DNA of 64,000 nt from an uncultured delta proteobacterium (GCA_963804165.1 CAWDPO010000043.1:96001-160000); one strand, 5' to 3'. Shown: positions 4,326 through 59,739, counted from the first letter of the stretch. Numbers and translations are program-made. Notes: generated from the sequence alone by a model not told the origin.

Positions 4326-4372
4326 TTTCCACTACTGCGAACAAACGACTCGGGTTTTTCCACAATTGAAAA
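4326..4372. promoter_or_regulatory. Paired palindromic upstream activator sites (putative enhancer)
   Basis: TTTCCA-CTAC-TGCGAA (4326) and TTTCCA-CAAT-TGAAAA (4357), 31 bp apart, between divergent sigma-54 promoters. Confidence 0.65.
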
Positions 4373-4434
4373 TATTCTCTCCGAACCCATGGGTACTGAG
4401 GCTGGAACATGCCGTTTACCTTCCGGAACCTTGA

Positions 4435-4449
4435 CGGCACTGGAATTGC
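4435..4449 (+). promoter_or_regulatory. Sigma-54 promoter
   Basis: CGGCAC-TGGAA-TTGC upstream of the DUF2267 gene. Confidence 0.75.
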
Positions 4450-4511
4450 TCAAGTTCTCTTACGGAAAAACATCATTTTTAATCCGGAGAGAATTTCAAG
4501 GAGGAATCGCC

Positions 4512-5027
4512 ATGAGAACCGGACCCACTCATCGTTACCCATTGACGCGCGGCGCACCCCGGTACAAAACCACCTACGACATCTTTGACGGCACGCTGCA
4601 AAAAACACAGATCTGGCTGAACGAGCTGATGACCGCGCTCGACTGGGAAAATCACCCGCAGAAAGCCTATCTCGCATTGCGCACGGTGTTGCACGCCCTG
4701 CGCGATCGGCTGACGGTCGAGGAAGCCGTGCAACTCGGCGCCCAGCTGCCGATGCTCGTGCGCGGTTTCTATTACGAAGGCTGGACGCTCAAAGGAAAAC
4801 CTCGCAAAGAACGGCACAAAGAGGATTTTCTCGCGCACATCAAAGATGCTTTTAAAGAGGACGTCACCGTTCGGCCGGAGAGCATTGCGCGCGCGGTTTT
4901 CAAAGTGTTAGCGCGTCACACCAGCGAAGGCGAAATCGACGACGTCAAGCATATTTTGCCGAAGACGCTGCATGAACTGTGGCCATCGAAGCGCGTTATG
5001 ACGTCTGCGAGCGCAAGAGAGCACTGA
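4512..5027 (+). CDS. DUF2267 family protein
   Basis: AYLALRTVLHALRDRLTVEEAVQLGAQLPMLVRGFYYEGW signature; RBS GGAGG before the ATG at 4512. Confidence 0.88.
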   Translation: MRTGPTHRYPLTRGAPRYKTTYDIFDGTLQKTQIWLNELMTALDWENHPQKAYLALRTVLHALRDRLTVEEAVQLGAQLPMLVRGFYYEGWTLKGKPRKERHKEDFLAHIKDAFKEDVTVRPESIARAVFKVLARHTSEGEIDDVKHILPKTLHELWPSKRVMTSASAREH

Positions 5028-5081
5028 TTCAGGGAAAAGCACTGCTTGCGCGTGATAATCATTGGACGTCGGGTGGTACAT

Positions 5082-5363
5082 ATGGATCGACTATTCCTAC
5101 TGATTGCCGGGGTTGCGATCCTTGGTCTCTATTTTATGATTGCACCGGTTGCTATTAACACCTATCGTCGCTATCGCAAACGTAAGACAATCATCTGTCC
5201 CGATACCGGTCAGATAGTGGAACTGGACCTCAACGCAGTGCATGCCGGTCTCATGTCCGCTTTGGGAAAGCACTGCGTCCGAGTAAAATGGTGCAGCCTG
5301 TGGCCGCGCAAAAAAGGTTGCGCTCAAGAGTGCGTAAATGAGGACTGGTGGTCCCGAGATTGA
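5082..5363 (+). CDS. Small membrane-anchored Cys-rich hypothetical protein
   Basis: N-terminal TM helix, basic patch, then CPDTG...CSLWP...GCAQEC. Confidence 0.7.
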   Translation: MDRLFLLIAGVAILGLYFMIAPVAINTYRRYRKRKTIICPDTGQIVELDLNAVHAGLMSALGKHCVRVKWCSLWPRKKGCAQECVNEDWWSRD

Positions 5364-5602
5364 TGTGCACAGTCCGGGTCAATGGCAGCAATCGCAGATT
5401 AAACTGACGCTTCAACCGTTTCGGCGACGCCGGCCTTCCCGACTCATCGACATGACCCAGAATTAGCGCGCCGGTAACAAATAAGACGACTACCGAAATA
5501 AACTCCATGAATTGCCGACAGTTCGAGACCTGGCTCAGGCAGCGGCGACAGAGATTCAATAAGATACTTAACACCTGCGACAGAGCCGCGAGCAAGAGCG
5601 AT

Positions 5603-5635
5603 TTGAACTAGTTGAACGGTTTGAACGATTCGAGC
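5603..5635 (+). repeat. Short tandem repeat with 9-nt period (TTGAAC-NNN)
   Basis: TTGAAC at 5603, 5612 and 5621, plus degenerate TCGAGC at 5630. Confidence 0.6.
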
Positions 5636-5670
5636 TAACAAGTCTCAGAGATCATACCGGAGCCAAAGCT

Positions 5671-9094: not shown

Positions 9095-9141
9095 TTCGCG
9101 CGAACGGTAAAAACTGCGAGCGCGACTATCATTGCTGCGAA
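9095..9141. promoter_or_regulatory. Paired activator sites (degenerate)
   Basis: TTCGCG-CGAA-CGGTAA (9095) and CTATCA-TTGC-TGCGAA (9126), 31 bp apart. Confidence 0.45.
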
Positions 9142-9873: not shown

Positions 9874-10548
9874 ATGCGGGTTCTCGTCGTCGAAGACGAC
9901 AAAAAAATAGCATCGTTTATGGTGAAGGGGCTTAAGGAAGCCGGGTTCGCCGTGGACCGCGCCGATAACGGGGAGGACGGACTGCACATGGCTCTCAGCG
10001 CTCCCTACGACGCGGCTGTGGTGGACATTATGCTACCAAGGCTTGACGGGTTGAGCCTTATCGAACGATTGCGGACGGAAAAGGTTCACACGCCGGTGCT
10101 GATCCTAAGCGCCAAGCGCTCGGTCGACGACCGCGTCAGAGGGCTTCAAACCGGCGGCGACGACTATCTGACTAAACCGTTTTCCTTTACCGAACTTCTA
10201 GCGCGCGTGCAGGCCCTAATCCGCCGGGCGAACCATGAGACTGAGTCAACGCGGCTTGAAGCGGGCGATCTCTCGATGGACTTGCTTCGGCGTGAGGTTT
10301 TACGCGCCGGAAGGGTTCTTGATCTGCAGCCGCGCGAATTTGCCTTGTTGGAGTATATGATGCGTAACGTCAGCCGAGTGGTATCGAAGACGATGATTAT
10401 CGAGCACGTCTGGGGATACGACTTCGATCCGTTGACCAACGTTGTCGACGTGCTGGTTTCCCGACTGCGTAGCAAGGTGGACCGTGACTTCGACAAAAAG
10501 CTGATTCATACCTATCGCGGAGCCGGTTATGCCCTTAAAATTTCCTAA
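9874..10548 (+). CDS. OmpR-family response regulator (CusR/CopR-like)
   Basis: Receiver (VVEDD, DIMLP, DDYLTKPF) plus winged helix (NVVDVLVSRLRSKVD, YRGAGY). Confidence 0.93.
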   Translation: MRVLVVEDDKKIASFMVKGLKEAGFAVDRADNGEDGLHMALSAPYDAAVVDIMLPRLDGLSLIERLRTEKVHTPVLILSAKRSVDDRVRGLQTGGDDYLTKPFSFTELLARVQALIRRANHETESTRLEAGDLSMDLLRREVLRAGRVLDLQPREFALLEYMMRNVSRVVSKTMIIEHVWGYDFDPLTNVVDVLVSRLRSKVDRDFDKKLIHTYRGAGYALKIS

Positions 10549-11923
10549 ACACTTTCATAAGAAACTCGGCGTCCGGCTCACACTCTGGTACTCGGGTCTC
10601 TTTATTTTGAGCTCTTTAACGTTCTCCATCGTTACTTACCTGTTCGTCTTTTCGACGGTGAGAGACAACCGGCACGCGATACAAGCTACGCTGTCACAGT
10701 ATCGGCCAAAAGTGGAGGAGGGTGGCCTAGAGGCGCTTGCCGCGTTGACGCGCCAACAGCGCAAACCGAGCCGGCACAGCTCGTTCTTCATTCGCCTTGT
10801 TGGACGGCATAAAGAGACGCTGTATTTGAGCAATCCGCAACTCTGGGAGAAATTCAACTTTGCTTCTCCTTCGAGCTCGGCTTTCGAAGAGCAATGGCAT
10901 TATTACACTTCCAAACGGGACGGTTCCTTGTTGGAAGTCACTTCGGCTCCTCTTTCAAACGGCAATGTCTTTCAGGTGGGTAAAAGTATTACGGATCGTG
11001 AGGAAGTGCTGGAGCGTGTTGGCGAGACTTTACTGGCGACCATGATTCCGATGATCGTGATCGGTTTGGTAGGCGGTGCGTTCCTGGCCTCTCGCGCCCT
11101 GCGGCCGATTCGCAATTTGAGCCTGGTCGCGCGCTCCATTGTCGACACTAGCCGATTCGACGCTCGAGTGCCGGATGATCAATCCCGAGGTGAGCTCAAT
11201 GATCTCGTCGTTTTGTTTAATCAGATGTTGTCAAAGATCGAAACCTTGATCGAAGGCATGAAGAGCGCTTTGGACAATGTCGCACATGATTTACGCACGC
11301 CCATCACGCGGGTGCGAATCGTGGCAGAGGAGGCGCTTGCCGGCGACGACGCTGCGCGGTGCGAGGCGCTTGCCGATTGCTTGGAAGAGACCGAACGACT
11401 GACGACGATGCTCGATACGCTGATGGATATTTCGGAAGCCGAGACCGGCGCAATGAAGCTGACGATGGAGAATGTCGATCTTTCCGCATTGATCGATGAA
11501 GTCGTAGAACTCTATGATTTTGTCGCTGAAGACAAGGGCGTTATGGTTTGCGTGAACTCAGCCCGCGGCTGCTATTTGCCGGCCGACCGATCGAGGTTAC
11601 GTCAGGTCATCGCCAATCTTGTCGACAATGCCATCAAGTATACCCCGCGCGGTGGACGTGTCGAAATTGAAAGTCTGCAAGAAGACCACCAAGCTGTGCT
11701 GCTCGTGCGGGATACCGGCGTCGGCATCCCGCCGGATGAAGTGACACGAATCTGGGATCGTCTCTACCGCGGCGACAAAAGCCGCTCGCAACGAGGGCTG
11801 GGTCTTGGATTAAGTCTTGTAAAGGCGGTCATTCAAGCTCACCATGGCCGGGTCGAAGTCTCCACCAATTCGAGCGGCGGCTCTCGCTTCTCGCTCTATC
11901 TGCCGCTATCGCCAGCGGTTTAA
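10529..11923 (+). CDS. Membrane sensor histidine kinase (HAMP-HisKA-HATPase)
   Basis: Two TMs; VAHDLRTP, NLVDNAIKY, DTGVGI and GLGLGL motifs. Confidence 0.93.
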   Translation: MPLKFPKHFHKKLGVRLTLWYSGLFILSSLTFSIVTYLFVFSTVRDNRHAIQATLSQYRPKVEEGGLEALAALTRQQRKPSRHSSFFIRLVGRHKETLYLSNPQLWEKFNFASPSSSAFEEQWHYYTSKRDGSLLEVTSAPLSNGNVFQVGKSITDREEVLERVGETLLATMIPMIVIGLVGGAFLASRALRPIRNLSLVARSIVDTSRFDARVPDDQSRGELNDLVVLFNQMLSKIETLIEGMKSALDNVAHDLRTPITRVRIVAEEALAGDDAARCEALADCLEETERLTTMLDTLMDISEAETGAMKLTMENVDLSALIDEVVELYDFVAEDKGVMVCVNSARGCYLPADRSRLRQVIANLVDNAIKYTPRGGRVEIESLQEDHQAVLLVRDTGVGIPPDEVTRIWDRLYRGDKSRSQRGLGLGLSLVKAVIQAHHGRVEVSTNSSGGSRFSLYLPLSPAV

Positions 11924-11928
11924 TCGTC

Positions 11929-11948
11929 AACCTTTCAAGAATGTAATC
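11929..11948 (+). promoter_or_regulatory. cop-box/CusR-box-like site
   Basis: AACCTTTCAAGAATGTAATC resembles the CopR/CusR-type operator (as I recall it) and lies upstream of the ArnT-like operon. Confidence 0.5.
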
Positions 11949-12036
11949 TCGCGGAAAGCTCCCAGCAACGCTTTTGCGTTACTTCGCGGCGGGTGCAGCG
12001 TAAGATTTTATCGATGCACCTTTCGGTCGCGGAGAT

Positions 12037-13857
12037 TTGTGTGTGAGAGGAGCGGACGAAACAAAAATAGCGTTTCGTTACGGGTCGAATGGCGCTGAGA
12101 CTCTTCTCTCGCGTGTTTGGAACCGGGGCGTTACTACCGTCTCAGTCCCCGATAACATCCCTAATCCGACGAGCTATTGGATCATCGGTTTAATTGTTTT
12201 TTGTCTGTGCGTCCTATTTTGCCACTTGGGAACCGCTGTCCTGTTCGAACCCGATGAGGGAAGAAACGCCGAAATCGCCAGAGAGATTCTATTACTCCAG
12301 GACTGGGTGACGCCGCACTACGACTTCATCCCGCGCCTCGACAAGCCGATCAGCTATTTTTGGCTGGTGGCTCTGTCGTTTCGCATCTTTGGTTCCTCGG
12401 AATGGTCAGCGCGCCTTCCGTCCGCCTTGGCGGCGTTCGCTTGTCTGTCCGTTACCTATGCCCTCGCTCGCGCGATGTTTGGCCGTTGGGCCGCGCTCTG
12501 GAGCGCTCTCGTCCTGCTGACCAGCATCGAGTTTTTTGCCCTTTCCCGCATCGTGATTTTGGACATGCTGCTCACGTTTTTCTTCTCGCTCGCACTCTGC
12601 GCTTTCTTCCTGGGACAGCGCGAAGTCGTAGCCGGCAAAAGCAAGCTCTATTTTTCACTAATGTATGTTGCGCTTGGCGCGGCGACTCTCGTCAAAGGGC
12701 CGATCGGTTTCCTTCTCCCAACAGCGGTAATTTTTTTCTATCTATTGCTTACAAAACGATGGGCGCTTTTAGGTAAACTAAATTTGCCTTTGGGGATAGC
12801 ACTCTTCGTGCTTACGGCCGCGCCCTGGTATCTGATGGCTGAATCCCGCAATCCGGGATATCTCCGTCATTTCTTCTGGGAAGAAAACCTCGCCCGTTTT
12901 GCAACCACGCGCTTCAACCGTAATCAGCCGTGGTATTTTTTTCTTTTGATTTTGTCCGCTGGATTTTTTCCCTGGACCGCGCTTTTGCCGGGGGCATTGG
13001 TCGACTTCCGCAAGCGTCAGTTCGACGACAAGCGATTGTTTCTTCTCTTATGGGCGGGGTTGCCGCTCATTTTTTTTTCGCTGTCATTATCCAAGTTGCC
13101 TCACTACATTCTGCCCATCTACCCGCCGTTGGCGATCATTGTTGGCGCAAGGGTTGCCGGCATGTTCGCAGACTCCACGCCAACTCTGCGATGGCTGCCG
13201 GTGTTTCCGGCAGTTGTATTTTTTATCTTGTTCTTTGTCATAACGATGGTAGCTCTCCGGCCTGATTTCTTGCCCGTTGATCTTCAGGCCTATGTTCACG
13301 CGGCTTTCCCGGAACCGCCCGTCTCCCTGGTTGCGGCTCTGATCGCCCTTTCGATACTCACTTTATTGGCGACGCGGTGGCGATATTTGCGACAACCAGT
13401 TGGCCTCTATTCAGTTACGGCTTTGAGCTTTACGCTGTTTGTCCTAGCATCCGCGCCGATTACCGCCGCGGTGGCGACGAATCGTTCTTCCGAGCAGCTG
13501 GCTCAAAAAGCGGCGCGCCTAGTCGGAGCGGAAGATCAGTTCGTTCTCTATGATGGTTATTTCTCCAGTCTGCCATTTTATCTCGATATCCAGAAACCAA
13601 TCTGGGTGGTTTGGTCGGGTAAAAAGAGCAGCGTCTTAGGTAGCGATTATGTGGCGCTGAAACGGCCCGAGCCTGCGCGGGGATACGGCAAGCTATTGTA
13701 CAGCTATGAAGAATTTGTGGAGCAGTGGAAAGCGTCGAATGATTCACTCGTCGTATTTGTAAGAAGCAGTAACCTGCCTCGGTTGGAGAAACTACTTGGA
13801 ACATCGGCAAAGATACTTATCCAGGTGGGCGACACTGCTCTGGTGAAAATCAAATGA
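12037..13857 (+). CDS. ArnT/PMT_2-like (GT39/GT83) membrane glycosyltransferase 1; true start probably further downstream
   Basis: EPDEGRNAEIARE, RLDKP, SARLPS, LVKGPIG and SKLPHYILP motifs; many TMs. Confidence 0.88.
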   Translation: MCVRGADETKIAFRYGSNGAETLLSRVWNRGVTTVSVPDNIPNPTSYWIIGLIVFCLCVLFCHLGTAVLFEPDEGRNAEIAREILLLQDWVTPHYDFIPRLDKPISYFWLVALSFRIFGSSEWSARLPSALAAFACLSVTYALARAMFGRWAALWSALVLLTSIEFFALSRIVILDMLLTFFFSLALCAFFLGQREVVAGKSKLYFSLMYVALGAATLVKGPIGFLLPTAVIFFYLLLTKRWALLGKLNLPLGIALFVLTAAPWYLMAESRNPGYLRHFFWEENLARFATTRFNRNQPWYFFLLILSAGFFPWTALLPGALVDFRKRQFDDKRLFLLLWAGLPLIFFSLSLSKLPHYILPIYPPLAIIVGARVAGMFADSTPTLRWLPVFPAVVFFILFFVITMVALRPDFLPVDLQAYVHAAFPEPPVSLVAALIALSILTLLATRWRYLRQPVGLYSVTALSFTLFVLASAPITAAVATNRSSEQLAQKAARLVGAEDQFVLYDGYFSSLPFYLDIQKPIWVVWSGKKSSVLGSDYVALKRPEPARGYGKLLYSYEEFVEQWKASNDSLVVFVRSSNLPRLEKLLGTSAKILIQVGDTALVKIK

Positions 13858-13873
13858 GGCAAGCTCAAGCGCA

Positions 13874-15343
13874 ATGATGGCTCTAGATCGGTGCGACGGG
13901 CTGTTTTTCATGGTGATGTTCTTTGCACTGCTCGGGAGGCTTCTACTGTCCCCGCCCATCTGGCATCACGGCGAGGCGCGCGAAGGTCTCGTGGTGCAGG
14001 GCATTCTACGCAACCACGAATGGATCTTGCCGTTGCGCAACGGGGAGTTGCCATCGAAACCGCCGTTCTTCCACTGGCTGGCGGCGTTACCCGCGTTTGT
14101 CTTTGGACCAATCGATTTAATCGTTCGCCTGCCATCGGTCATGGGCGCCGTGATTATGGCGGCGGCGACTTTTTTTATGGGTGGAGAAATGGGCGGGCGG
14201 AGGACCGGGTGGCTCGCCGCCGGGGCGCTTTTGGGAATGCAAGAATTCTGGGTCTCAGGGACTCAGGCGCGCGTCGACATGGTCTTCGCTGCTTGTGTTG
14301 CGGTGGCCCTCGCCGGATTCTTTTTCTGGTATCGCGACGGTCACCGAGTCGCGCGCGCGGCTTGTTATATTGCTTCAGCCTGCGCGGTGCTCTCTAAAGG
14401 GCCGGTGGGAATAATTCTTCCCGCCGCGACGATTGTTGGCTTCCTGGCGGTGGAAGGACAGCTTCGATCTCTGTGGAGCCCCTGGTCTTGGCCGCTCATG
14501 GTAGTACTACTTCTGCTGGACCTCGGTTGGTACGCATTGGCCTATGACAGTGGGGGAAACGAATTTTTCAAACTACAGATAGCATTTGAGAATCTTGACA
14601 GATTTTTCGGTCATGGCCATTTTTCCACGGAAAACACGTCTCTCAATACATTGACTTGGTTGGCCAATCAGACGCTGCCTTGGAACCTGGTCTTGATCTG
14701 GTCCTTTATACGGCGGATACGGGGCACGCGCGAGGATTGGGCCGGCCATTTTCTTCACGCATGGTGGATTTCAATTTTCCTTGTTTTTCTGTTAGCCGCG
14801 CGTTCGGGGGCGGTTTATTTGCTTCCCCTGTATCCGGCTATCGCGCTGCTGGCGGCCAGAGCGATCAACGACGAAATTCCTGTTTTTGCGGAACGATCCC
14901 CTATTGAGCCTATTGAAAAGGCTCGGCTGCTTTGGTGGCGGCAGAGAAAAATCGTAAAACGAATTGGCATCGGCATCGCGATCTTTGATCTGACGCTCAT
15001 GTTGCTGGTCACGCCGACTTATTGGAGCAATCGGAACACGCGGAACGCCAGGCTCGCATTCATCGAAGATATCCGCACGATCGTTGCAACTCGCAAACAA
15101 CTTTTCTCTGCTCCCGAATTACAATACGAGACGATGGTGATCGCTTATCGATTGGGGCGGGAAATCATCCGCAAACCACTCATCTGTGCAGTCCGTGATG
15201 ACTATTTTTTTCTTCGATCTGGTTCGACGAATATTTTTAGAGTCGAAACACAAGTTCTCGCGTCGTCAAAAAGTGATGAAATCTCCCTTGTCACAGTGAT
15301 CTCCGAAACACCCGTTCGGCAGGACTTCGCATGCATCAGGTAA
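13874..15343 (+). CDS. ArnT-like glycosyltransferase 2
   Basis: GEARE, SKPPFFHW, RLPS, ARVDM, SKGPVG and YLLPLYP motifs. Confidence 0.87.
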   Translation: MMALDRCDGLFFMVMFFALLGRLLLSPPIWHHGEAREGLVVQGILRNHEWILPLRNGELPSKPPFFHWLAALPAFVFGPIDLIVRLPSVMGAVIMAAATFFMGGEMGGRRTGWLAAGALLGMQEFWVSGTQARVDMVFAACVAVALAGFFFWYRDGHRVARAACYIASACAVLSKGPVGIILPAATIVGFLAVEGQLRSLWSPWSWPLMVVLLLLDLGWYALAYDSGGNEFFKLQIAFENLDRFFGHGHFSTENTSLNTLTWLANQTLPWNLVLIWSFIRRIRGTREDWAGHFLHAWWISIFLVFLLAARSGAVYLLPLYPAIALLAARAINDEIPVFAERSPIEPIEKARLLWWRQRKIVKRIGIGIAIFDLTLMLLVTPTYWSNRNTRNARLAFIEDIRTIVATRKQLFSAPELQYETMVIAYRLGREIIRKPLICAVRDDYFFLRSGSTNIFRVETQVLASSKSDEISLVTVISETPVRQDFACIR

Positions 15344-17109
15344 TCGCCATTGCGGACGCTCACCGACGGAGACCGTTCATACGCAATCTCACGGATTCGA
15401 CTCGCGTGTTTTTGTTGTCGGAGACTGCGTCGATCTTCCACGTCATTTTTCTTCTTGCGTTGTGCGGGGCGCTTTATTTCCCCTACCTCAGCTCGAATCC
15501 TTTCTTTGACAAGGGCGAGCCGCGCGAGGCGCTGGCAGTGCAGGATATCGTTCAACGCGGCGAGTGGTTGGTGCCGCTCAAGCGCGCCACCGATATTCCA
15601 TCCAAACCGCCATTGTTTCACTGGTCAGCCGCAGTGGTTTCGCGGTTGACTGGTTCGCTGACGGAGGCGACCATCCGCTTTCCGTCTGCGCTCTATGCGA
15701 CGCTGGGTGTCTTGCTTCTTTTTGTTCTCGGCCAACGGATTTTCGACGTCAAAACCGCGCTGCTCGGCGCTGCGATTCTTGCGACTATGATGGTTTATCA
15801 GGACCAGGCCTTGAGCGCGCGGGTCGATATGGCTTTGTGTTTTTTCGTCACCGTGGAGTTGGCGCTTTTCTATTTGCTCTATCGTAGCTGTTTGACCGGC
15901 TCTCTTTGGCTCTACGCTTTTTACGTGCTCGTCGGTGTTGGGACTTTGGCCAAAGGGCCATTGGGTCTGGTGCTGCCGATATTAGTTTACGGTTCGTTCA
16001 CGCTTTTAGGGCGACGCTGGGACATCGTCAAGAAATTCTGTTTTCATCCGGGCGTTTTCTTGGCCTTGGTCCTCGCGTCGGGTTGGTACGTCATAGCGGT
16101 AACCCGCGGCGGTGAGGGTTTTTTCGATCGCCAGATTTTGCAGGAAAACCTGAGCCGCTTCGCCGGCGGCTCCGGACATAGCCATCCCATTTACTACTAT
16201 ATTCCCTATTTGTTATCGCAGAGCTTACCTTGGGGACTGTTTCTTCCTGTGCTGCTATGGGATGCATTCAGAACCGGATTCCGCTCGAATGAGGGAACGC
16301 TCTTTCTGAAGCTTTGGTTCTTGCTCATGTTCGTTTTCTTCTCTGTGTCCGCCGGCAAGCGTCCGGTTTATCTGTTGCCACTTTACCCTGCATTAGCGCT
16401 GCTCTTGGCGGCGTGGTTTTACGATGCTAGCGCGGCACGTGGCGCGCGACTCCTGATCTATCGTGCTATCGCGCTGTTTGCCGGCTTTAGCGGCGCGCTG
16501 CTGTTGGTCATCACCCTCGGGGCGCTATGGAGTCACGACCAGGGCTGGTTTTTCGCGCCCATCGCGCAACTGCTCAAACCGAAGGACCGGGCCAATCTGA
16601 TGGCAGTGAGAAATCAATTGGAGAATTTCGGCTGGGTTTTCACGGCGGTCGCTTTAATGGCATCCGCACTGTGGTTCTCGTTGGCCCGCTCCCTCTGGCG
16701 CGCGAGAATGCGTTCCGTCGCCTATCAGCTCGTGATGGTGTCGCTGCTGCACGGCTTTGTCATTTGGTCCGTGGTCATGCCGGTGATCGCCCAGGCGAAG
16801 AGCTATCGGGGCTTCATGACTCTGGTGAACCGAGAGGTTAGTTCGGCCGACAAACTCTATCTCTACGGTAGCTTCAACAGCGATCCAGTAGTGTTTTATC
16901 GCGGTGCCGTAATCAAGGAACTTCATCGACCCGCGGAGTCGGTCGCGGCCATGATTGGTAAAGGCGATGACTACCTGATCATGCCCCGCCAAAGGTGGGA
17001 GGAAATACAGCAGATGACCAGCACTTTATCTGCGCCTCTCTTACAGAGCGAGGGACGAGGCCCAGAGGGGGATGCCCCGCTGGTGTTAGTGAAAGCCGCC
17101 GTTACATAG
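15331..17109 (+). CDS. ArnT-like glycosyltransferase 3
   Basis: GEPRE, SKPPLFHW, ARVDM, LAKGPLG and GKRPVYLLPLYP motifs. Confidence 0.88.
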   Translation: MHQVIAIADAHRRRPFIRNLTDSTRVFLLSETASIFHVIFLLALCGALYFPYLSSNPFFDKGEPREALAVQDIVQRGEWLVPLKRATDIPSKPPLFHWSAAVVSRLTGSLTEATIRFPSALYATLGVLLLFVLGQRIFDVKTALLGAAILATMMVYQDQALSARVDMALCFFVTVELALFYLLYRSCLTGSLWLYAFYVLVGVGTLAKGPLGLVLPILVYGSFTLLGRRWDIVKKFCFHPGVFLALVLASGWYVIAVTRGGEGFFDRQILQENLSRFAGGSGHSHPIYYYIPYLLSQSLPWGLFLPVLLWDAFRTGFRSNEGTLFLKLWFLLMFVFFSVSAGKRPVYLLPLYPALALLLAAWFYDASAARGARLLIYRAIALFAGFSGALLLVITLGALWSHDQGWFFAPIAQLLKPKDRANLMAVRNQLENFGWVFTAVALMASALWFSLARSLWRARMRSVAYQLVMVSLLHGFVIWSVVMPVIAQAKSYRGFMTLVNREVSSADKLYLYGSFNSDPVVFYRGAVIKELHRPAESVAAMIGKGDDYLIMPRQRWEEIQQMTSTLSAPLLQSEGRGPEGDAPLVLVKAAVT

Positions 17110-17354
17110 CGAATTATCGCTCTTTGTGCGACGCAAGGGTGGGATTGGTGTCCATAGCACTTTTGGCACTTTCCACGGCAGGAAACACGCGAAGCATTTT
17201 GAAGTCGCCGCGTCCCGGACCGCGAACGAAGAACGAGGGACCGCCGCCATATAGAGTTGAGCGGCCAACCCTGCAACTGAAGTTGCGTGCATAAGCAATA
17301 TAGTTGCGATTCATGTTGGACAGCGGTCGGATCGTAATTGTCGTTTCGAGAGTA

Positions 17355-18489: not shown

Positions 18490-19842
18490 TTAGTCATTAA
18501 TGCCAAGCTTTTCGAGCTTGCGGTATAGCGTCGACAGACTCAACCCGAGCAGCTCGGCTGCGCGTATTTTGTCGCCGCCGGTTTTTCCGATGGTGCGCTC
18601 GATATGAGCTTTCTCGTAAAGCTCAACCGCTCTGGTAAGATTGTCTTCAGCGCCGAATTCGTCAGTGCCGTTCTGCTGACCAGGTAAATCCGCCGGCTTG
18701 ATCCATTCACCATCGCCGAGAATCATCGCTCGCTCTAAAACGTTATCCAGCTCGCGGATGTTTCCCTTCCACGGAAGCGACATGAGGATCCGCATGGTCG
18801 CGCTGTCGACGCCTTTGTAATTTGTCTTCATCTCCGCATTATGCCGATGAATAAGATGCTCCACTAGCCCAGGGAGGTCATCGAGTCGCTTGCGTAGAGG
18901 TGGAATGTTGATCTCAAATACGTTTAGACGATAAAATAAATCCTCGCGGAAACGCCCCGCTTCGACTTCGCTCTTGAGATCGCGGTTGGACGCCGCGAGA
19001 ATACGTACATTCACCTTGACCGGGGTCGTGGCTCCCACCGGCAATACGGTTTTCTCTTCGAGCACGCGCAGAAGTTTGGGCTGCAAACTCAACGGCATCT
19101 CGCCGATTTCATCGAGGAAGATCGTGCCACCCCGCGCCCTTTGAAACAATCCTTCTTGAGAACCGACTGCCCCGGTAAAAGAGCCCTTCATATGGCCGAA
19201 GAGCTGGCTCTCCAATAAGTTGTCGGGGATCGCGCTGCAGTTGACGGGCAGAAACACATTATCTTTACCGAGACTGCCGGCGTGAATAGTTCGGGCCACA
19301 ACTTCTTTTCCCACACCACTCTCGCCACTGATGAGCACTGTGGTCGGCGTCGGCGCGACCTTCCTTACCATGTTAACGATTTCTTGCATCGCGGCGCTGC
19401 GTCCGAGCGGTCGATCCGGGCTGAAATAGCTATTAATTTCTCGGCGTAGTAACTGATTCTCCCACGCCAATTTTCTATGCTCCACCAATTGCTGAACCTT
19501 CCGAAGAACCTCAGCAAAGAGAAGCGGCTTGAGCAAGTAATCTTGCGCCCCCAAGCGGATCGCCTCAATGGCCGTCTCGACGGTGGCGTGGGCTGACATG
19601 ATCATCACCAAAGTTTGCGGTGAGACGTCACGCACATGCTTCATCACAGCGATTCCGTTTGCGCCGGGCATCATCAGATCCGTGAGAACTAAATCGAGAT
19701 CGAGCTTGTCGATCAGGGAAATCGCAGCCTTTCCGTCGGCCGCCTCGTGAACCTCATATCCTTCACCCCTTAAAAGCTCGACCAAGCTTTCGCGCGCACT
19801 TTCCTGATCTTCCGCGACTAATATGGACCCATTCGAATTCAT
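18490..19842 (-). CDS. Sigma-54-dependent two-component response regulator (NtrC/AtoC family)
   Basis: Receiver (LTDLMMP), Walker A GESGVGKE, GSFTGA, FLDEIGE, RFREDLFYRL and a Fis HTH (AAELLGLSLSTLYRKL). Confidence 0.95.
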   Translation of the reverse strand: MNSNGSILVAEDQESARESLVELLRGEGYEVHEAADGKAAISLIDKLDLDLVLTDLMMPGANGIAVMKHVRDVSPQTLVMIMSAHATVETAIEAIRLGAQDYLLKPLLFAEVLRKVQQLVEHRKLAWENQLLRREINSYFSPDRPLGRSAAMQEIVNMVRKVAPTPTTVLISGESGVGKEVVARTIHAGSLGKDNVFLPVNCSAIPDNLLESQLFGHMKGSFTGAVGSQEGLFQRARGGTIFLDEIGEMPLSLQPKLLRVLEEKTVLPVGATTPVKVNVRILAASNRDLKSEVEAGRFREDLFYRLNVFEINIPPLRKRLDDLPGLVEHLIHRHNAEMKTNYKGVDSATMRILMSLPWKGNIRELDNVLERAMILGDGEWIKPADLPGQQNGTDEFGAEDNLTRAVELYEKAHIERTIGKTGGDKIRAAELLGLSLSTLYRKLEKLGIND

Positions 19843-19855
19843 TTATGCGTACCTA

Positions 19856-19902
19856 TTCCCAAGAATGCGAAAAGGGATTATCGGCCTTGCCAAATGTGCA
19901 AA
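19856..19902. promoter_or_regulatory. Paired palindromic sites immediately upstream of the regulator gene (possible autoregulation)
   Basis: TTCCCA-AGAA-TGCGAA (19856) and TTGCCA-AATG-TGCAAA (19887), 31 bp apart. Confidence 0.65.
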
Positions 19903-19984
19903 TCCACAACCCAATTCTATAGAAAATCATTTCATTTTCTATCGTTGAGCAATTATAAGGCCAGGAGCTAAGTTGTATTCCGAG

Positions 19985-22366
19985 CTAGTTCCGCGGAAGG
20001 GCAATCACAAAGTTGGTTCCTTTTCCATGCTCGCTGCTATAGCTAATTGATCCACCATGGGCCCTGACAATTTGCTGAACGATCGAGAGTCCGATCCCGG
20101 TGCCTTGCGGTTTGGTAGTAAAGAATGGCTCGAAAATATCTATGCCTGGAGGAATCCCCGTGCCGGTATCCGAAATTTCCAGAACGACTCTGTCGTCCGA
20201 AGTTGACCCTTTAATCGAGATTCTTCCACCCCCGGGCATCGCCTCCGCGGCATTCTTGGTGAGATTGAAGATTACCTGCTTCATTTTATCGATGTCGACG
20301 GTGACGGTGGGCAGGTTCGACGGAAAGGAACATTCTACTTGGATTCCCAACTCAGCATAGCGCGGCAACTCAATTTCGATCGCTTCTCCGACTAGAGCAG
20401 TGACACTCGTCCGTTGGAAATCGAACTTCTCCCGGCGGGACAGAGAACGGAACTGTTCGAGCAGCGTGCTCAGACGCGATACCTCGTTGTGCAGTCGGTT
20501 CACGGTCGATGTTATCTGGGTATCGAGCAGGTTCGACTGTTTACGGAGACGTTGCTCGAGAAGCTGGATTGTCAACGACATGCCGTTTAATGGGTTGGCG
20601 AGCTCATGGCCGATTTTGGCCGCGGTCGTTCCGATGGCAACCAGCCGTTCGTTCTCCACCAGTTGTGCTTGCAACCGCGCCTTTTCTGAAACGTCGCGAA
20701 TGAACGCGGCATATTGGACCTCCTTGTCTTCCGCGATCTTGGTCACTGACAACTCAATCGGAAACAGCTCGCCATTTTTCCGCTTGGCGGTCACCGTTCG
20801 TATGCGGCCGATGGCACGGGCTTCGCCCGTCTTTTCATAACGTTCGATATACCCGTCGTGCTCCGTTGCGTGAGGCTCGGCCATGAGCAAATTTACCTTT
20901 TGCCCTACGATCTCATTTCTCGTATAGCCAAATATTCGTTCCGCCGCCGGGTTGAATAGCACAACTCTTCCTTGACGGTCGATGGAGAGGACAGCGTCTT
21001 GGGTCGTTTCGATGAGACTCTGCAGCCACGCTTGGCCGCGTCTCACTTCGGAGATATCGCGGATGAAAGCGGCGTATTGAACTTCTTCGCCTTCACCCGT
21101 TGCAACTTTCGTAATTGAAAGCTCGATGGGAAAAGTCGCGCCGTTCTTGCGCCGGGCTTCCACGGTCCGGATACGGCCGATGGCGCGCGCCTCGCCGGTT
21201 CTTTCGTAACGTTCAATATAAGAATCGTGCTCAGCCGCATACGGCTCGGCTATCAAGACGTTCACTTTTTGTCCTTGGATTTCAGCCTTGCTGTAACCGA
21301 AGATCCGCTCCGCTCCCGGGTTGAACAGCACGATTCGCGCCTGTCGATCAATCGAAACCACCGCATCCTGGGTAGTCTCGATTAGACGCTCGATCCAGTT
21401 TGTTTTGCGTCGAATGTCTGTTTCTGCTTCCTTCTGCGATGACACGTCGCGAAAAACCACGACCACGCCAATAATCGTGCCGTCGGATCTGATCGGCGCA
21501 GCGCTATAGATTACAGCAAAAAACGTCTTGTCTTTGCGAATAAACACATCCTCGTGATTCGATAGAAGCAACCCGCGCTGCAATACCTGCAGCCCTGAAC
21601 ATTCGGAGGCAGGAAAGGGCCTGCCGTCTGGATGTTGGTAATGTGTCATTTCGTGCATCTTCCGGCCAAGCAACTCGGCGCTCGACCAACCAAAGAGGCG
21701 CTCTGCGGCGGGATTGATGTAGGTTACCAAACCTTGGGCATCGACGGTGTAAAGCCCCTCGCCCATGTTGGCCATAACCGACTGATTGAATTCCAGCGCG
21801 CGGCGAAGCTCGGCCCTGCCCTCAAGCGCGGCCTGTTCGGCGAGTCTACGATCGTGGGTTTCGACCACGCCGCCGACGTATCCAAGGAAAGCGCCGTCGG
21901 CGCTATATTGCGGCACGCCGCGGTCGACTACCCAGCGATACTCGCCTGAACGATGACGCAGGCGGTACTCCATGACAAAAGGTTCGCGGCGGTCGAAAGC
22001 GAAGGTGTAACTGTCTAGGCAGCGCCGAAGATCGTCCGGATGCACGCCATCAGCCCAACCGTTGCCGAGCTCCTGCTCCATTGTGCGCCCGGTAAACTCC
22101 AGCCAACTTTTATTGAAATAATTGCAAAGCTTGTCGGTTGCGGATTGCCAAACGAGGACTGGTAGCGCGTCGGCCATAGCGCGATACCTTTCTTGACTCT
22201 CGCGGAGGACCTGCTCGGCTTCTTTTTCTATACTCATGTCCCACACCACCAGTACACAGACACTGTTCTTCTCCTCAATTCGCGAAACGGGACCAAACAG
22301 ATTACTCGCAGTTTGGAGGCAGGAATTGGAGGATACCTTTCGTAGCTTTGGCGATCCATTTGCCAA
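19985..22366 (-). CDS. Cytoplasmic multi-PAS histidine kinase with two FixL-type heme-PAS domains (alternative start 22237)
   Basis: Four PAS domains, two of them with EHD(S/G)YIERYE(R/K)TGEARAIGRIR. H-box GHELANPL, NLTKNA, DTGTGI, FEPFFTTK, GTGIGL. No TM. Confidence 0.93.
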   Translation of the reverse strand: MANGSPKLRKVSSNSCLQTASNLFGPVSRIEEKNSVCVLVVWDMSIEKEAEQVLRESQERYRAMADALPVLVWQSATDKLCNYFNKSWLEFTGRTMEQELGNGWADGVHPDDLRRCLDSYTFAFDRREPFVMEYRLRHRSGEYRWVVDRGVPQYSADGAFLGYVGGVVETHDRRLAEQAALEGRAELRRALEFNQSVMANMGEGLYTVDAQGLVTYINPAAERLFGWSSAELLGRKMHEMTHYQHPDGRPFPASECSGLQVLQRGLLLSNHEDVFIRKDKTFFAVIYSAAPIRSDGTIIGVVVVFRDVSSQKEAETDIRRKTNWIERLIETTQDAVVSIDRQARIVLFNPGAERIFGYSKAEIQGQKVNVLIAEPYAAEHDSYIERYERTGEARAIGRIRTVEARRKNGATFPIELSITKVATGEGEEVQYAAFIRDISEVRRGQAWLQSLIETTQDAVLSIDRQGRVVLFNPAAERIFGYTRNEIVGQKVNLLMAEPHATEHDGYIERYEKTGEARAIGRIRTVTAKRKNGELFPIELSVTKIAEDKEVQYAAFIRDVSEKARLQAQLVENERLVAIGTTAAKIGHELANPLNGMSLTIQLLEQRLRKQSNLLDTQITSTVNRLHNEVSRLSTLLEQFRSLSRREKFDFQRTSVTALVGEAIEIELPRYAELGIQVECSFPSNLPTVTVDIDKMKQVIFNLTKNAAEAMPGGGRISIKGSTSDDRVVLEISDTGTGIPPGIDIFEPFFTTKPQGTGIGLSIVQQIVRAHGGSISYSSEHGKGTNFVIALPRN

Positions 22367-22478
22367 ATCTGAGAAACATTTTAGATCTTCTATTCCTACT
22401 AAGGAACGAATGTCAATCTAAGTCTTTGAGGTTACACGCAAAATGGGACTGGTGATATTCAGCAGCGTTTCATCTGTC

Positions 22479-22493
22479 TGGCACATGCTTTGC
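22479..22493 (+). promoter_or_regulatory. Sigma-54 promoter
   Basis: TGGCAC-ATGCT-TTGC, with an upstream palindrome TTGCCA-AATC-TGAGAA at 22360. Confidence 0.8.
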
Positions 22494-22541
22494 GCAAAAA
22501 GAAGGAGAAAGCCATTAAGGCTAGGGCGACAAGAGGTATTT

Positions 22542-22655
22542 ATGGTAAGCGAAACCGAACTTTTCTATCTTGTGCTGCTGACGCTGCTGACGCTGATCAT
22601 GCATTTGATCCTTTCACGGAAGCACCGTCGGGATGACAAGCATTCTCACGCGTAG
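22542..22655 (+). CDS. 37-aa single-TM microprotein, paralog of 9330
   Basis: RBS GAGG; MVSETELFYLVLLTLLTLIMHLILSRKHRRDDKHSHA*. Confidence 0.65.
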   Translation: MVSETELFYLVLLTLLTLIMHLILSRKHRRDDKHSHA

Positions 22656-24039: not shown

Positions 24040-24086
24040 TTCCTACCAGTGCAAAATCTAACTGCTGAATTTCTCATTAGTAAAAA
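24040..24086. promoter_or_regulatory. Paired activator sites
   Basis: TTCCTA-CCAG-TGCAAA (24040) and TTCTCA-TTAG-TAAAAA (24071), 31 bp apart. Confidence 0.6.
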
Positions 24087-27184: not shown

Positions 27185-27315
27185 GCGATTAACCGCTCTG
27201 GATTCACGAATAGCGGTCCAAAGCGCGCCAAATCGGATAAGCCATTGTCATTGTGAAGAATCGACCCAAGGAAGATTCGCAGGAATGCAATTTGCCGGGT
27301 GCGACGTGGCTGAAT

Positions 27316-29315: not shown

Positions 29316-29802
29316 GCGCCTCGCCAAGAAGTTTGAATCACCGGCAGTTCTCAAATCGTCGCTCACAACGACCTTCGGTAGCTTCTTTTTGTATAAAACC
29401 AATTGAGCAACCGACGTGTCATTCAGTTTCCTTTATCGCTGCATGACCTAAGCCGTGACACTAAACTGGCGAGGAGTGCCGGTTATAGAGAATGCTGTCG
29501 TTTGTGCGCAGAGCTGCTTCACTTTCATGAAGCAAATTCTCCGTTTCCCCCCTCTGGGGCCTAGCCACTCCTTCGCTAAATTGGCAGGTTCGACTGCATC
29601 GGAAGGTCTTCTCCTCTACCGCGGTGGTTTATCTCCGGATTTTTTAAACTTGCGAATCCATCCCACCCCTTATTGCCAAGAATAAAAATTCTAAGAACAT
29701 AAACGTCATAAAATCGCGCAATTCCAAACATCACAAACTTTGCACCGAAATTGCTTTCTATACATAACCAGGGGCGAAAACTTACCGAGGAGGAGGTCGA
29801 AA

Positions 29803-54241: not shown

Positions 54242-54443
54242 GCAAACTATGTGCCCAGCGATGGAGCCCAGGCACAGTTAGAATCTCAATGAATGCGGCT
54301 GATGATTCGAATCAAACGCTCGGAATTTTCTCAGAGATGAAAATCTCTAGGACGTTTTCCTACTAAGAATGCGAAGGAAACTTGCGCTCGGCTCAGCAAA
54401 AGTGGGGGATTCATTAGGATACAACTCGCGGCACTCCAATTGC
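54242..54443. promoter_or_regulatory. Divergent sigma-54 promoters with paired activator sites
   Basis: GGGCAC-ATAGT-TTGC (-, 54242-54256), CGGCAC-TCCAA-TTGC (+, 54429-54443); TTCTCA-GAGA-TGAAAA (54328) and CTACTA-AGAA-TGCGAA (54360). Confidence 0.72.
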
Positions 54444-57756: not shown

Positions 57757-57782
57757 ATTCGAAATCCAGGATCCGAAGCTGA

Positions 57783-58268
57783 TTAGGCAGCCTTCCTTCT
57801 GCGCGGTTCCACCAGTCGAACAATCTGGGGCTTCGCAAATACAGTGAAATCTCTGTAGCGCAACCTCACCGTCTGGGCATGATTCCCGGCGTTGAAGTAG
57901 ATGTATTGATCCTTCTCCAGCTCGGGATCGACGTAGACTTTGAGGCCAAAAAGATTTCCAAATGGCGGCATCGCGCCGATTTCACAGCCGGGAAAGCGCG
58001 AGATAAATTCATCTTCTGTTGCCAATCGCACCCGGGTGGCACCCAAGCTCGACCGTGCCATATCCAAGCTGATCTTATGGCTGCCCCTAATCACGCCCAT
58101 GACCAGCGTGCCGTCGACAACAAGCATCACAACCTTGGCGATTTCGTTTCCGGACACGTGTTGCTGGGCGGCGATCTCCTGCGCAGTATACGCAAGCGGG
58201 TGGTTGAAAACCTCGTACGACACTTTCCCTTCATCGAGCATTTCCTTTAGCTTCGTCAAAATCGGCAT
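57783..58268 (-). CDS. YbaK/ProX aminoacyl-tRNA editing domain protein
   Basis: AKVV, LATE.E...FPGCEIGAMPPFG and FNAGNH motifs. Confidence 0.88.
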   Translation of the reverse strand: MPILTKLKEMLDEGKVSYEVFNHPLAYTAQEIAAQQHVSGNEIAKVVMLVVDGTLVMGVIRGSHKISLDMARSSLGATRVRLATEDEFISRFPGCEIGAMPPFGNLFGLKVYVDPELEKDQYIYFNAGNHAQTVRLRYRDFTVFAKPQIVRLVEPRRRKAA

Positions 58269-58332
58269 AACTTCCTCCTTTCGGCTGCAATGCACTAATT
58301 AAATTAGATTTAATCTCTGTTGAATATTGGTG

Positions 58333-58558
58333 GCAAGAACCGTGCCTTAGATTCGGGCAAGACGTTTTCTATTTCCTGCACGATATAGGCTCTCCACAGA
58401 TGCACCCTCATGATTGAGGCGACCTCAGTTCCCACCGCTGATAATTCTCCTGGTTCGTTTTCTCACGCGTGCGAGCCGAGTGGCCCAATCAGATAAATTC
58501 TCAGTTTATTCGCGGGATTTCTCGCTGCGAAAATCGTTCACCGTGGCACATCTCTTGC
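58333..58558. promoter_or_regulatory. Divergent sigma-54 promoters with paired activator sites
   Basis: AGGCAC-GGTTC-TTGC (-, 58333-58347), TGGCAC-ATCTC-TTGC (+, 58544-58558); TTCCCA-CCGC-TGATAA (58429) and TTCTCA-CGCG-TGCGAG (58460). Confidence 0.78.
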
Positions 58559-58611
58559 CGCTCTTTGTGGATGAATGCGGGCGCACAATCAGCAAAGATG
58601 GAGGAAGACAT

Positions 58612-59079
58612 ATGAAAATTCCCTTGAAGATCACCTTTCGTGACATGCCCCCTTCGAAAGCGATCGAGAACAATATTCGCGCGAAAGCCAGCAAGCTGGA
58701 TGTATTTTACGACGCCATCATGAGCTGTCGGGTCATCGTCGAGGCGCCGCACCGCCACCATCATAAGGGCAAGGCCTATGTAGTACGTATCGACCTGACT
58801 GTCCCGGGAGGCGAACTGGTGGTCAATCGTGAGCCCAAGCGTCTAGTGGCCGCCCCGGTGGAACATATAGAAGAATTAGAAAAGACATGGGCCGAAAGTC
58901 ATGGGCCGAGCAAGCATGCGGCACATGAGGATGCCTATGTCGCTATTCGCGATGCCTTCAACGCGGCGGCGCGTAAGTTACAGGACTATGCGCGGCGGCA
59001 GCTGGCAAGACTAAGGTCCATGAATCCACGCGGCTGCGTCACCCTAAACGGTCCTCTCCGAATTCTTGAGACGATTTGA
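58612..59079 (+). CDS. HPF/RaiA-family ribosome-associated (hibernation) protein
   Basis: MKIPLKITFRDM..S.AIE...CRVIVEAPHRH...VRIDLTVPG...HEDAYVAIRDAF. Confidence 0.88.
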   Translation: MKIPLKITFRDMPPSKAIENNIRAKASKLDVFYDAIMSCRVIVEAPHRHHHKGKAYVVRIDLTVPGGELVVNREPKRLVAAPVEHIEELEKTWAESHGPSKHAAHEDAYVAIRDAFNAAARKLQDYARRQLARLRSMNPRGCVTLNGPLRILETI

Positions 59080-59165
59080 GCGAGCGAACAGCAAGCCGCG
59101 CAACGGTTCCTGAAACCAGGGCGACGCGCCGTTCGGTTTTGGCCGTCTCAGCGGGAACCCGATGA

Positions 59166-59531
59166 TCATGCCGCACGCCCGTGCACGCCGTGCCGGTGTT
59201 TAGTCTTTTCCTCTGCGTGTTTGTCTTTCGTTTCGCGCAGTCCGCGACGAACGTACTCTGGGTCGAGGCCGAGGAGATCGCACACATTGTCGAAGGAAAA
59301 GATCCAGTCGTTACCCCTGTGCATAATCCACTTCTCGGCAGTACGGAATCGTTCTTTACCCTTCGGATCGTGCGCCCGACTGTATTTGCGATACTCATGC
59401 GCCGCGTCTTCAAGAATCGCAGCGACTAGCGCTCGTTCGGGTTCGAGGTGCTCGCTGCGGCGAAACGTATCCAAGTACTGCTGCGCCATTGAAGTGTCGC
59501 CGTTCATGATCGTAATAATGTTTTCCGCCAT
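59166..59531 (-). CDS. Conserved-looking hypothetical protein
   Basis: EPERALVAAILEDA...A..W...WIFSFDNVCDLLGLDPEYVRRGL; RBS GAAGG. Confidence 0.7.
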   Translation of the reverse strand: MAENIITIMNGDTSMAQQYLDTFRRSEHLEPERALVAAILEDAAHEYRKYSRAHDPKGKERFRTAEKWIMHRGNDWIFSFDNVCDLLGLDPEYVRRGLRETKDKHAEEKTKHRHGVHGRAA

Positions 59532-59585
59532 TGCGCTCACCTTCCTTTCTACTTTGAGTTTCGAATTCGTCCCTAAATAACTCAC

Positions 59586-59739
59586 GCAACCGATATGCCA
59601 CTAGGTTACGCGGAGCTGATGCCGTGTTCTTCCCAGCCTTGCAAGAATTTGCCCGGCGCCTTCTCAGCGCTGAGAAATGGCCATGACTAAAAGCCGAAAA
59701 GTCGAAGTAAATCGAGCGTATCAATGGCATAGCCGTTGC
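59586..59739. promoter_or_regulatory. Divergent sigma-54 promoters with paired activator sites
   Basis: TGGCAT-ATCGG-TTGC (-, 59586-59600), TGGCAT-AGCCG-TTGC (+, 59725-59739); TTCCCA-GCCT-TGCAAG (59630) and the perfect palindrome TTCTCA-GCGC-TGAGAA (59661). Confidence 0.8.

Follow-up and report, generated by a model that had tools for sequence, protein, structure and literature searches.

A tandem dyad as candidate enhancer of a predicted sigma-54 stress regulon linked to a haem-PAS kinase in an uncultured delta proteobacterium

A stretch of 64,000 nucleotides from an uncultured delta proteobacterium (positions 96001–160000 of contig C43, CAWDPO010000043.1, in assembly GCA_963804165.1), here called the window, repeatedly carries two copies of a short palindrome with starts 31 base pairs (bp) apart, and the question it raises is which protein reads these pairs and which genes they serve. 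A preliminary description of the window listed nine such pairs and one single site, and proposed that they are tandem enhancers of the NtrC type, three helical turns apart, at -24/-12 promoters. The genome to which the window belongs (G000) is assembled to 7.5 megabases (Mb) in 46 contigs, with 56% G+C and an estimated completeness of 81%; contig C43 accounts for 436 kilobases (kb), or 5.8%, of it. With a probability of roughly three in four, we think that the palindromes (dyads) are upstream activating sites of the NtrC-family activator encoded at 18490–19842 in the window, which would be phosphorylated by an adjacent haem-PAS kinase and would run a stress regulon.

The 16-mers listed in the preliminary description are present at all nine pairs and at the single site. 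In its strict form, TTYYCA-N4-TGMRAA, the motif gives seven matches on five positions in the window compared to 0.17 expected, a number reached by none of 100 dinucleotide-preserving shuffles, and the enrichment over background is thus real. The whole of G000 has 29 strict positions, 12 of them on C43. The dyad spans 16 bp and is dyad-symmetric, with the consensus TTCNCA-N4-TGNGAA; in relatives it often reads TTCGCA-N4-TGCGAA. For spacings we applied a symmetrised matrix, built solely from the 19 sites of the preliminary description, with a score cut of at least 10. Outside the window this identifies 11 pairs at 31 bp, four at 30, two at 32 and two at 33, while all other spacing bins from 10 to 80 bp hold 0–3 pairs each, with a mean of about 0.3 per spacing. 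A matrix-free pattern (TTYNCA-N4-TGNRAA twice, with at most two mismatches) finds 13 pairs at 31 bp in G000, five at 30, two each at 32, 33 and 34 and one at 35, and none at any spacing of 24–29 or 36–39 bp. The 31-bp spacing is therefore non-random genome-wide, its peak being reproduced outside the window.

When each pair was left out in turn and compared with 35 control spacings over the entire 7.5 Mb, seven of the nine had 0.00 equally good pairs per control spacing. The pair at 27245/27276 (scores 8.9 and 11.0) is weaker, with 0.91 equals, and that at 9095/9126 has 18; because 9095 scores merely 3.8, 9126 (11.7) is the sole credible site there, and the place given to 9095 as half of a pair is unsupported. 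Twenty of the 29 window sites scoring at least 10 fall in the 17.5% of the window outside crude open reading frames (ORFs), a count that is partly circular because the matrix was trained on the preliminary sites. Low-threshold iterative refinement of the matrix was also tried, and dropped after it drifted to an AT-rich pattern. Calling a pair wherever both sites score at least 7, with a sum of at least 20 and a spacing of 30–33 bp, gives 33 non-redundant pairs in G000, of which 20 lie between C43:12176 and C43:155630, a region of 144 kb making up 1.9% of the genome.

Denser arrangements are also seen. Contig C5 of G000 carries two pairs within one spacer (26255 and 26384), and three consecutive dyads follow each other in 31-bp steps in a relative (G009:C133:4998-5075), so arrays of more than two exist among relatives. 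For an extra pair in the window, at 28573 (spacing 32 bp, scores 11.6/9.6), no -24/-12 element could be recognised, and we leave the pair as uncertain.

The pairs are strongly associated with sigma-54-type promoters. We called a -24/-12 element where GG-N10-GC was accompanied by at least five of the seven other consensus positions and pointed away from a pair at no more than 130 bp. Such an element accompanies 19 of the 33 pairs, compared to 3.4% of 20,000 random positions, and nine pairs have one on both sides, which is true of 0.025% of random positions. Inside the window no pair lacks a -24/-12-type element, that of 29641/29673 having been found by eye, and most predicted promoters are followed, usually after about 40–110 bp, by a Shine-Dalgarno-like purine run (missing at three) and a start codon. 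Scans of the region from about 19800 to 24500 for sigma-70 promoters and terminators gave results at shuffle level only, and an Rfam scan of the window at gathering thresholds gave no matches.

The distance from pair to promoter, taken from the site edge to the T of TGGCAC (set at -26), is itself phased. The 28 distances in G000 cluster at 29, 39–40, 48–53, 58–63, 68–71 and 80–81 bp, or about 29+10n, with a Rayleigh R of 0.54–0.58 for periods of 9.75–11 bp (nominal p about 1e-4, uncorrected for the number of periods tried), compared to an R of 0.05 for distances from random positions. Fifteen loci of eight other genomes of the genus contain 48 pairs, with 36 at 31 bp, six at 30 and six at 32, and their 52 distances fall in the same classes with an R of 0.62–0.64 at 10.25–10.5 bp, though these are not independent of G000 because the loci are partly orthologous. 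The centre of the proximal dyad thus lies at about -64, -74, -84, -95, -105 or -115, most commonly near -84, with the distal dyad 31 bp further out. The genome has an rpoN gene, on contig C38. The promoter link, the phasing, rpoN and the presence of an activator gene in the cluster all support the proposal of tandem NtrC-type enhancers three helical turns apart. The preliminary range of 30–120 bp to the promoter is close to the measured 29–119 bp, whereas the pair before the regulator gene, which had been excepted from that range, does have a -24/-12 element, situated upstream of the pair and conserved in all eight aligned loci.

Conservation among relatives separates the dyads from their surroundings at hsp20, where we aligned 300 bp of upstream sequence from 13 genomes, leaving out locus L115 of G005. 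In ten of these the two dyads and the pair of divergent -24/-12 elements are conserved, and nothing besides, amid diverged spacers; in the other three (G002, G014 and G011) the dyads are missing at this location. A locus search that used the activator as query yielded a single close relative (80%) and otherwise matches of 38–49%, and was unusable for footprinting. More broadly, the tandem pattern (at most two mismatches) is found in 23 of 24 genomes of the genus, with 1–17 copies per genome, compared to one of 16 genomes in the order's other two families and one of 41 for a reversed-pattern control. Among 301 genomes of the class it occurs in 24 of 25 from the same family, covering nine genera (controls: 5 of 301), and certain genera of other families have it too, for instance g27, two genomes of which carry 10 and 12 pairs; none was found in the 21 genomes of family f3. 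An orthologue of the activator at 80–93% identity is present in 15 of the 24 genomes of the genus (a count that includes G005, which is flagged as unpublished), and orthologues at 63–70% occur in three of five tested genomes that carry pairs outside the genus.

About 29 strong Sigma54_activat genes can be found in G000, and only one of them is on C43, amid the cluster of sites. We regard its product, judged from sequence, as the most likely binder of the dyads. It has the receiver residue Asp55, a Walker A motif (GESGVGKE), DEIGE, a GSFTGA loop and a Fis-type helix-turn-helix (HTH), and it scores below every NCBIfam equivalog cut-off, including those for AtoC (413.3 vs 714), NtrC (TIGR01818; 388.6 vs 558.6), ZraR (363.9 vs 760) and LuxO (333.6 vs 800). 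Its 60% paralogue on contig C40 (L104) has no pair within the surrounding 12 kb. Its own leader carries a pair, with the promoter upstream: a block TGGC.T...A.TTGC (TGGCCT-N5-TTGCT) is near-invariant in 8 of 8 aligned loci of the genus, amid diverged sequence, and all eight kinase–activator spacers contain, in order, this -24/-12 block, a pair about 30–35 nucleotides (nt) on (spaced by 30 or 31 bp), and the start codon 10–14 nt later. The identical layout is found in another genus (L121), while in a different family (L122) the order is reversed, a -24/-12-like element lying downstream of the pair. At 19856–19902 the pair would occupy about +20 to +66 of the activator's sigma-54-type promoter, and it may act by activation from downstream, by blocking elongation, or by both.

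Upstream of the activator lies the gene for the kinase. Its two haem-PAS motifs are EHDSYIERY at residue 380 and EHDGYIERY at residue 503, and residues 446–571 (the fourth PAS domain) align with the full FixL haem domain (PDB ID: 1DP6) over 126 residues at E 7e-29, with EHDGYIERY opposite RHDSYISRY; the next-best PDB matches are DosP haem-PAS domains. The protein scores below the FixL equivalog cut-off (381.5 vs 850 bits), and its partner is an NtrC-type rather than a FixJ-type activator. The C-terminal 480–490 residues and the adjacency to the activator are kept in six of seven relatives' loci. Because there are two FixL-type haem-PAS domains, the signal is suggested to be oxygen or another haem ligand; low oxygen would fit the target genes. 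Pfam matches on the crude ORFs of the window describe a stress cluster with six Usp genes, a row of three CBS genes ahead of a hemerythrin gene, genes for DUF2267, BON, rubrerythrin/ferritin-like, Hsp20, S30AE-type hibernation factor and YbaK-type editing-domain proteins, an acyl-CoA ligase gene and a gene for a HAD-ATPase fusion. Predicted targets elsewhere in G000 include genes for a second Hsp20, Usp, two CBS proteins, GAPDH, a cytochrome c, a pyruvate:ferredoxin oxidoreductase fragment, a PaaA/C-like protein and a TctC receptor. The predicted regulon in G000 comprises at least 28 promoters, and taken together the targets resemble a programme for low oxygen or dormancy.

The mechanism that we propose is as follows. 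Each 16-bp dyad would take one dimer of an NtrC-family enhancer-binding protein, and because the dyads start 31 bp apart, leaving a gap of 15 bp, the two dimers would face the same side of the helix and so help the active AAA+ ring to assemble. The ring would then contact sigma-54 RNA polymerase at a -24/-12 promoter placed at a phased distance of about 29, 39, 50, 60, 70 or 80 bp, one pair often feeding two divergent promoters. The activator encoded at 18490–19842 would be phosphorylated by the adjacent kinase, and at its own gene, where the pair lies downstream of the sigma-54 promoter in the leader, it would activate itself, limit itself by a roadblock, or do both.

A number of points weigh against this model. 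Fourteen of the 33 pairs in G000 have no -24/-12 element passing the filter within 130 bp, and the promoter calls come from a simple pattern and the gene calls from crude ORFs. The GSFTGA loop departs from the canonical GAFTGA. The histidine that we take to be the haem ligand of the kinase is assigned by analogy with FixL, the alignment as such showing residue correspondence only. G000 encodes about 30 activators, and the recognition helix SLSTLYRKL of the window protein resembles those of several, so that the assignment rests on position, on the site at the activator's own gene and on phyletic pattern. That pattern has gaps: genomes of the genus in which no orthologue of at least 80% was found still carry pairs (8 in G012, 7 in G016, 3 each in G007 and G021, 2 in G004), in several such genomes a receiver-less activator, 55–59% identical, adjoins pairs, and G061 (100% complete, 10 pairs) has no activator match at E<=1e-120. 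G325 likewise has none at this threshold.

It follows from such cases that the enhancers might be real and yet be bound mainly by another activator, either the receiver-less paralogue or several paralogues with different signals, which we consider unlikely but the strongest of the competing explanations. The pairs of G012 and G016 speak for it, as do receiver-less activators consisting of AAA+ and HTH only, of 315–347 residues, that lie within a few kb of pairs in G012, G014 and G015 (L103 6675–7598, L105 7434–8396 and L106 6734–7666). Their helix, ISLSSLYRKI, is nearer to LSLSTLYRKL of the window activator than is VSRSSLYRKL of the 60% paralogue, and there is a precedent in LuxO and SypG, which are described as sharing upstream activating sites at qrr1 (PMC10162802). 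However, no receiver-less paralogue of G000 is among the matches listed (the assembly being 81% complete), the window activator is the only one on C43, and each of the orthologous loci inspected has a pair at the activator's own gene. Because pairs persist without an orthologue of at least 80%, beside a receiver-less activator, the motif is probably common to at least two activator types, or to a small activator subfamily. A separate observation concerns contig C40 of G000 (18334–20310, L007), where a pair at 18334 and a -24/-12 element precede a PAS_3 gene followed by an activator-like ORF (about 19849–20310; a frame of 388 residues) with no HTH at its end, which may be a truncated or HTH-less activator within the regulon.

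Far less probable is that the palindromes are operators of a factor that is not an activator, such as the Crp/Fnr protein encoded at 31476–32309, which would modulate sigma-54 promoters whose enhancers lie elsewhere. A Crp/Fnr-family gene does sit within the cluster, and a 16-bp dyad with a 4-bp centre is the general format of a Crp/Fnr site. However, with the window protein as query no homologue was found at E<=1e-30 in G006 (99% complete, 17 pairs) or G008 (99%, 6 pairs), nor in G011, G016 or G024, whereas G017 has a homologue and 0 pairs; this binder, which the preliminary description had itself named as the competing candidate, thus fits poorly. In addition, no further block that might serve as the enhancer is conserved in the hsp20 footprint, tandem dyads on one face phased to -24/-12 elements are the geometry expected of activators, and the 380 bp upstream of the crp-like gene carry no pair. 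Chance matches or a non-regulatory repeat can practically be dismissed, for while some half-sites are degenerate, 9095 fails the leave-one-out comparison and 14 of the 33 pairs have no detected promoter, the spacing peak recurs outside the window and in other genera with controls near zero, the spacing tests and the hsp20 footprint contradict it, and the unconserved sequence between the dyads argues against a mobile repeat.

A broader picture can also be drawn, which we offer tentatively and at somewhat short of even odds. A FixL-type kinase, wired straight to a sigma-54 activator and not to one of the FixJ or DosR type, may run a dormancy-like programme of about 30 promoters through one tandem enhancer, conserved over several families of an uncultured Binatia-type class. 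Divergent promoters would share the enhancer, each at a short distance with strict phasing (proximal centre from about -64), and a bending protein would probably not take part; the enhancer's copy in the leader would make activation self-limiting; the receiver-less paralogue may read the same enhancer and so bring two signals into one regulon.

Several known systems are useful for comparison. As judged from sequence and the published description, the closest analogue that we found is NmpR of the NmpRSTU system of Myxococcus xanthus, which appears alike in logic. It is NtrC-like and described as binding two GCGCA-N5-TGCGC dyads, preferably 14–15 nt apart, at sigma-54 promoters, and, under the control of a haem kinase, as inducing CBS, USP, cbb3 oxidase, HemN and hemerythrin genes together with its own operon in hypoxia (PMC11841059). 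Set against that description, the likeness covers two dyads per sigma-54 promoter (with a gap of 15 nt here), a GCA...TGC core, an NtrC-like regulator, a haem-dependent kinase, the proposed low-oxygen signal, CBS, Usp and hemerythrin targets, and the regulator's own operon. The differences are in the dyad (TTCNCA-N4-TGNGAA with a 4-nt centre here), in the sensor (a protoglobin kinase and a hybrid-kinase relay there, a single adjacent kinase with two FixL-type haem-PAS domains here) and in the extent of the regulon (7 promoters there, at least 28 predicted here, many of them divergent). The classical example of the architecture is NtrC at enteric glnAp2, where tandem dyads about three turns apart upstream of a -24/-12 promoter aid oligomerisation of the phosphorylated activator, which also acts on its own operon. 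The system described here resembles it in tandem dyads, helical spacing and action at its own operon, and differs in its motif, in a stress rather than a nitrogen regulon, in a protein scoring below the TIGR01818 cut-off, and in sites nearer to the promoter, with a proximal centre usually near -84 (about -64 to -115) compared to about -108 for NtrC.

A similar programme is known from mycobacteria, where the haem kinases DosS and DosT and the regulator DosR (DevR) control a hypoxia response rich in Usp, small heat-shock, CBS and hibernation-factor genes. DosR is of the LuxR/NarL type and works at sigma-70-type promoters, and the haem domains of DosS and DosT are GAF rather than PAS domains. The likeness is thus one of function and gene content only, although tandem binding boxes have been called an architectural hallmark of the DosR regulon as well (PMC3177182). 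PDB searches with a tandem Usp and a CBS protein of the window showed no special closeness to mycobacterial dormancy proteins. For the pair in the leader a precedent is found in Caulobacter FlbD, which uses a 3-prime enhancer and hence sites that are not upstream of the promoter. At its ftr sites FlbD is described as activating or repressing according to site position, so that one activator can do both (PMC3930126); FlbD serves flagellar genes and has no phosphorylated receiver, and here a downstream site is seen only at the regulator's own gene. ZraR of E. coli also has one binding region between divergent units, zraP and zraSR, one of which encodes the regulator, and the source describes essentially one such target (PMC8249747), whereas here nine of 33 pairs have elements on both sides and the activator falls below the ZraR cut-off. 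The half-sites published for the Vibrio activators SypG (TTCTCANNNTGMDWN) and LuxO (TTGCAWWWTGCAA) are similar to ours, with two upstream activating sites per promoter and two activators able to use common sites, as that account has it (PMC10162802); the centre is 3 nt there and 4 nt here, the regulons are those of biofilm formation and quorum sensing, and the LuxO cut-off is again not reached.

In literature searches we found no work joining sigma-54 and Binatota, and nothing relevant on sigma-54 enhancer-binding proteins with universal stress or hibernation genes. The present result gives a testable regulatory map (a kinase, an activator, a DNA site and about 30 target promoters) for a lineage without cultured members, and points to a way in which these soil bacteria may come to rest when oxygen is low. 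Since the mechanism of the switch is textbook knowledge and a link between oxygen limitation and an NtrC-type regulator is already described for NmpR, the result is chiefly of value as annotation and for comparison; the dyad, the type of sensor and the larger regulon are what differs from NmpR. Details that merit experiments are the FixL-type sensor, the strictness of the phasing, the sharing of enhancers by divergent promoters and the placing of an enhancer in the leader, and the 10-bp phasing, shared enhancers and leader enhancer are natural examples of sigma-54 geometry rules that could be used in the design of reporters.

Table 1. Sites, predicted promoters and genes of the putative regulon in the window (coordinates from its first nucleotide; promoter–gene assignments are predicted).
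Feature	Position	Strand	Remarks
ORF with malic-enzyme N-terminal domain only, 188 residues	3652-4218	-	predicted to be driven by TGGCTTATTTCTTGCG
-24/-12-like element TGGCTTATTTCTTGCG	4259..4274	-	51 bp from pair 4326/4357; pattern score just 5 of 7
Tandem pair, 31 bp	4326..4372		between divergent promoters; leave-one-out scores 15.9/15.6, 0.00 equals
-24/-12 element CGGCACTGGAATTGCT	4435..4450	+	62 bp from pair 4326/4357; predicted to drive DUF2267 gene 4512-5027
Single credible site	9126..9141		flanking -24/-12 elements at 9261 (+) and 9032 (-)
Response-regulator sigma-54 activator	18490..19842	-	receiver, AAA+ (Sigma54_activat), HTH_8
Tandem pair in activator leader	19856..19902		ends 13 nt before activator ATG
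-24/-12 element TGGCCTTATAATTGCT	19933..19948	-	30 nt upstream of leader pair; predicted promoter of the activator gene itself
Histidine kinase, four PAS domains	19985..22366	-	PAS 3 and 4 FixL-type haem-PAS; upstream neighbour of activator
Single strong site	22360..22375		5' end of kinase gene; 103 bp from element at 22479
-24/-12 element TGGCACATGCTTTGCG, near-consensus	22479..22494	+	followed by 37-codon hydrophobic ORF 22543-22656
Tandem pair	24040..24086		62 bp upstream of -24/-12 element 24149 (+)
Operon after the 24149 promoter	to 26530	+	Zn-ribbon, three CBS genes, hemerythrin gene
Weaker tandem pair	27245..27291		60 bp from -24/-12-like element 27184 (-), predicted to drive rubrerythrin-like gene 26829-27125
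Tandem pair, 32 bp	29641..29688		51 bp upstream of TTGCACCGAAATTGCT
-24/-12 element TTGCACCGAAATTGCT	29740-29755	+	first G replaced by T; failed GG filter, read by eye
Genes after TTGCACCGAAATTGCT	29803-30030 and beyond	+	signal-peptide ORF, then BON gene
Tandem pair, 32 bp	54328..54375		between divergent -24/-12-like elements 54429 (+) and 54256 (-)
Genes at pair 54328			54429 (+): nucleotidyl transferase gene; 54256 (-): 113-residue ORF, then acyl-CoA ligase gene
Tandem pair	58429..58475		between divergent elements 58544 (+) and 58347 (-)
Genes at pair 58429			58544 (+): ribosome hibernation factor 58612-59079; 58347 (-): YbaK-type editing-domain gene
Tandem pair including perfect palindrome 59661	59630..59676		between divergent elements 59725 (+) and 59600 (-)
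Genes at pair 59630			59725 (+): Hsp20 59811-60239; 59600 (-): 121-residue ORF

The arrangement around the pair at 58429 has an orthologous counterpart in loci of G015 and G012. Two of the small reading frames in Table 1 deserve mention. That at 3652–4218 is either a truncated malic-enzyme gene or a stand-alone domain within the regulon, and that at 22543–22656 (MVSETELFYLVLLTLL...), the sole ORF after its promoter before a convergent gene, may encode a small membrane peptide belonging to the regulon.

The remaining genes of the window show several further features. Between the kinase gene and the CBS operon, at 22703–23965 (-), lies a PriCT_1 (primase C-terminal) gene that may be the remnant of a mobile element. 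The cluster also encloses, at 9874–17945, an envelope-modification block without a motif pair of its own, in which an OmpR-type two-component pair is followed by three genes for PMT_2 (ArnT-like) glycosyltransferases and one for a PEMT/ICMT-like methyltransferase. A GH94 coding sequence (cyclic glucan or cellobionic-acid phosphorylase-like) extends across three ORFs at 41348–46319, its catalytic domain being divided between the overlapping ORFs 44065–45864 and 45399–46319 by a frameshift or a sequencing error. A similar picture emerges for the RNB (RNase II/R) ORF at 36295–37236, which matches profile positions 143–325 only and overlaps an upstream ORF of 242 residues without a Pfam match, so that 35586–37236 may be a split or frameshifted exoribonuclease gene. 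Lastly, small hydrophobic ORFs flank the Crp/Fnr gene, at 31296–31378 (+, about 27 residues) and 32300–32450 (+, about 50 residues), the latter bearing a GGLPNWGYHSYGYGPSG motif, and both may encode small stress-membrane proteins.

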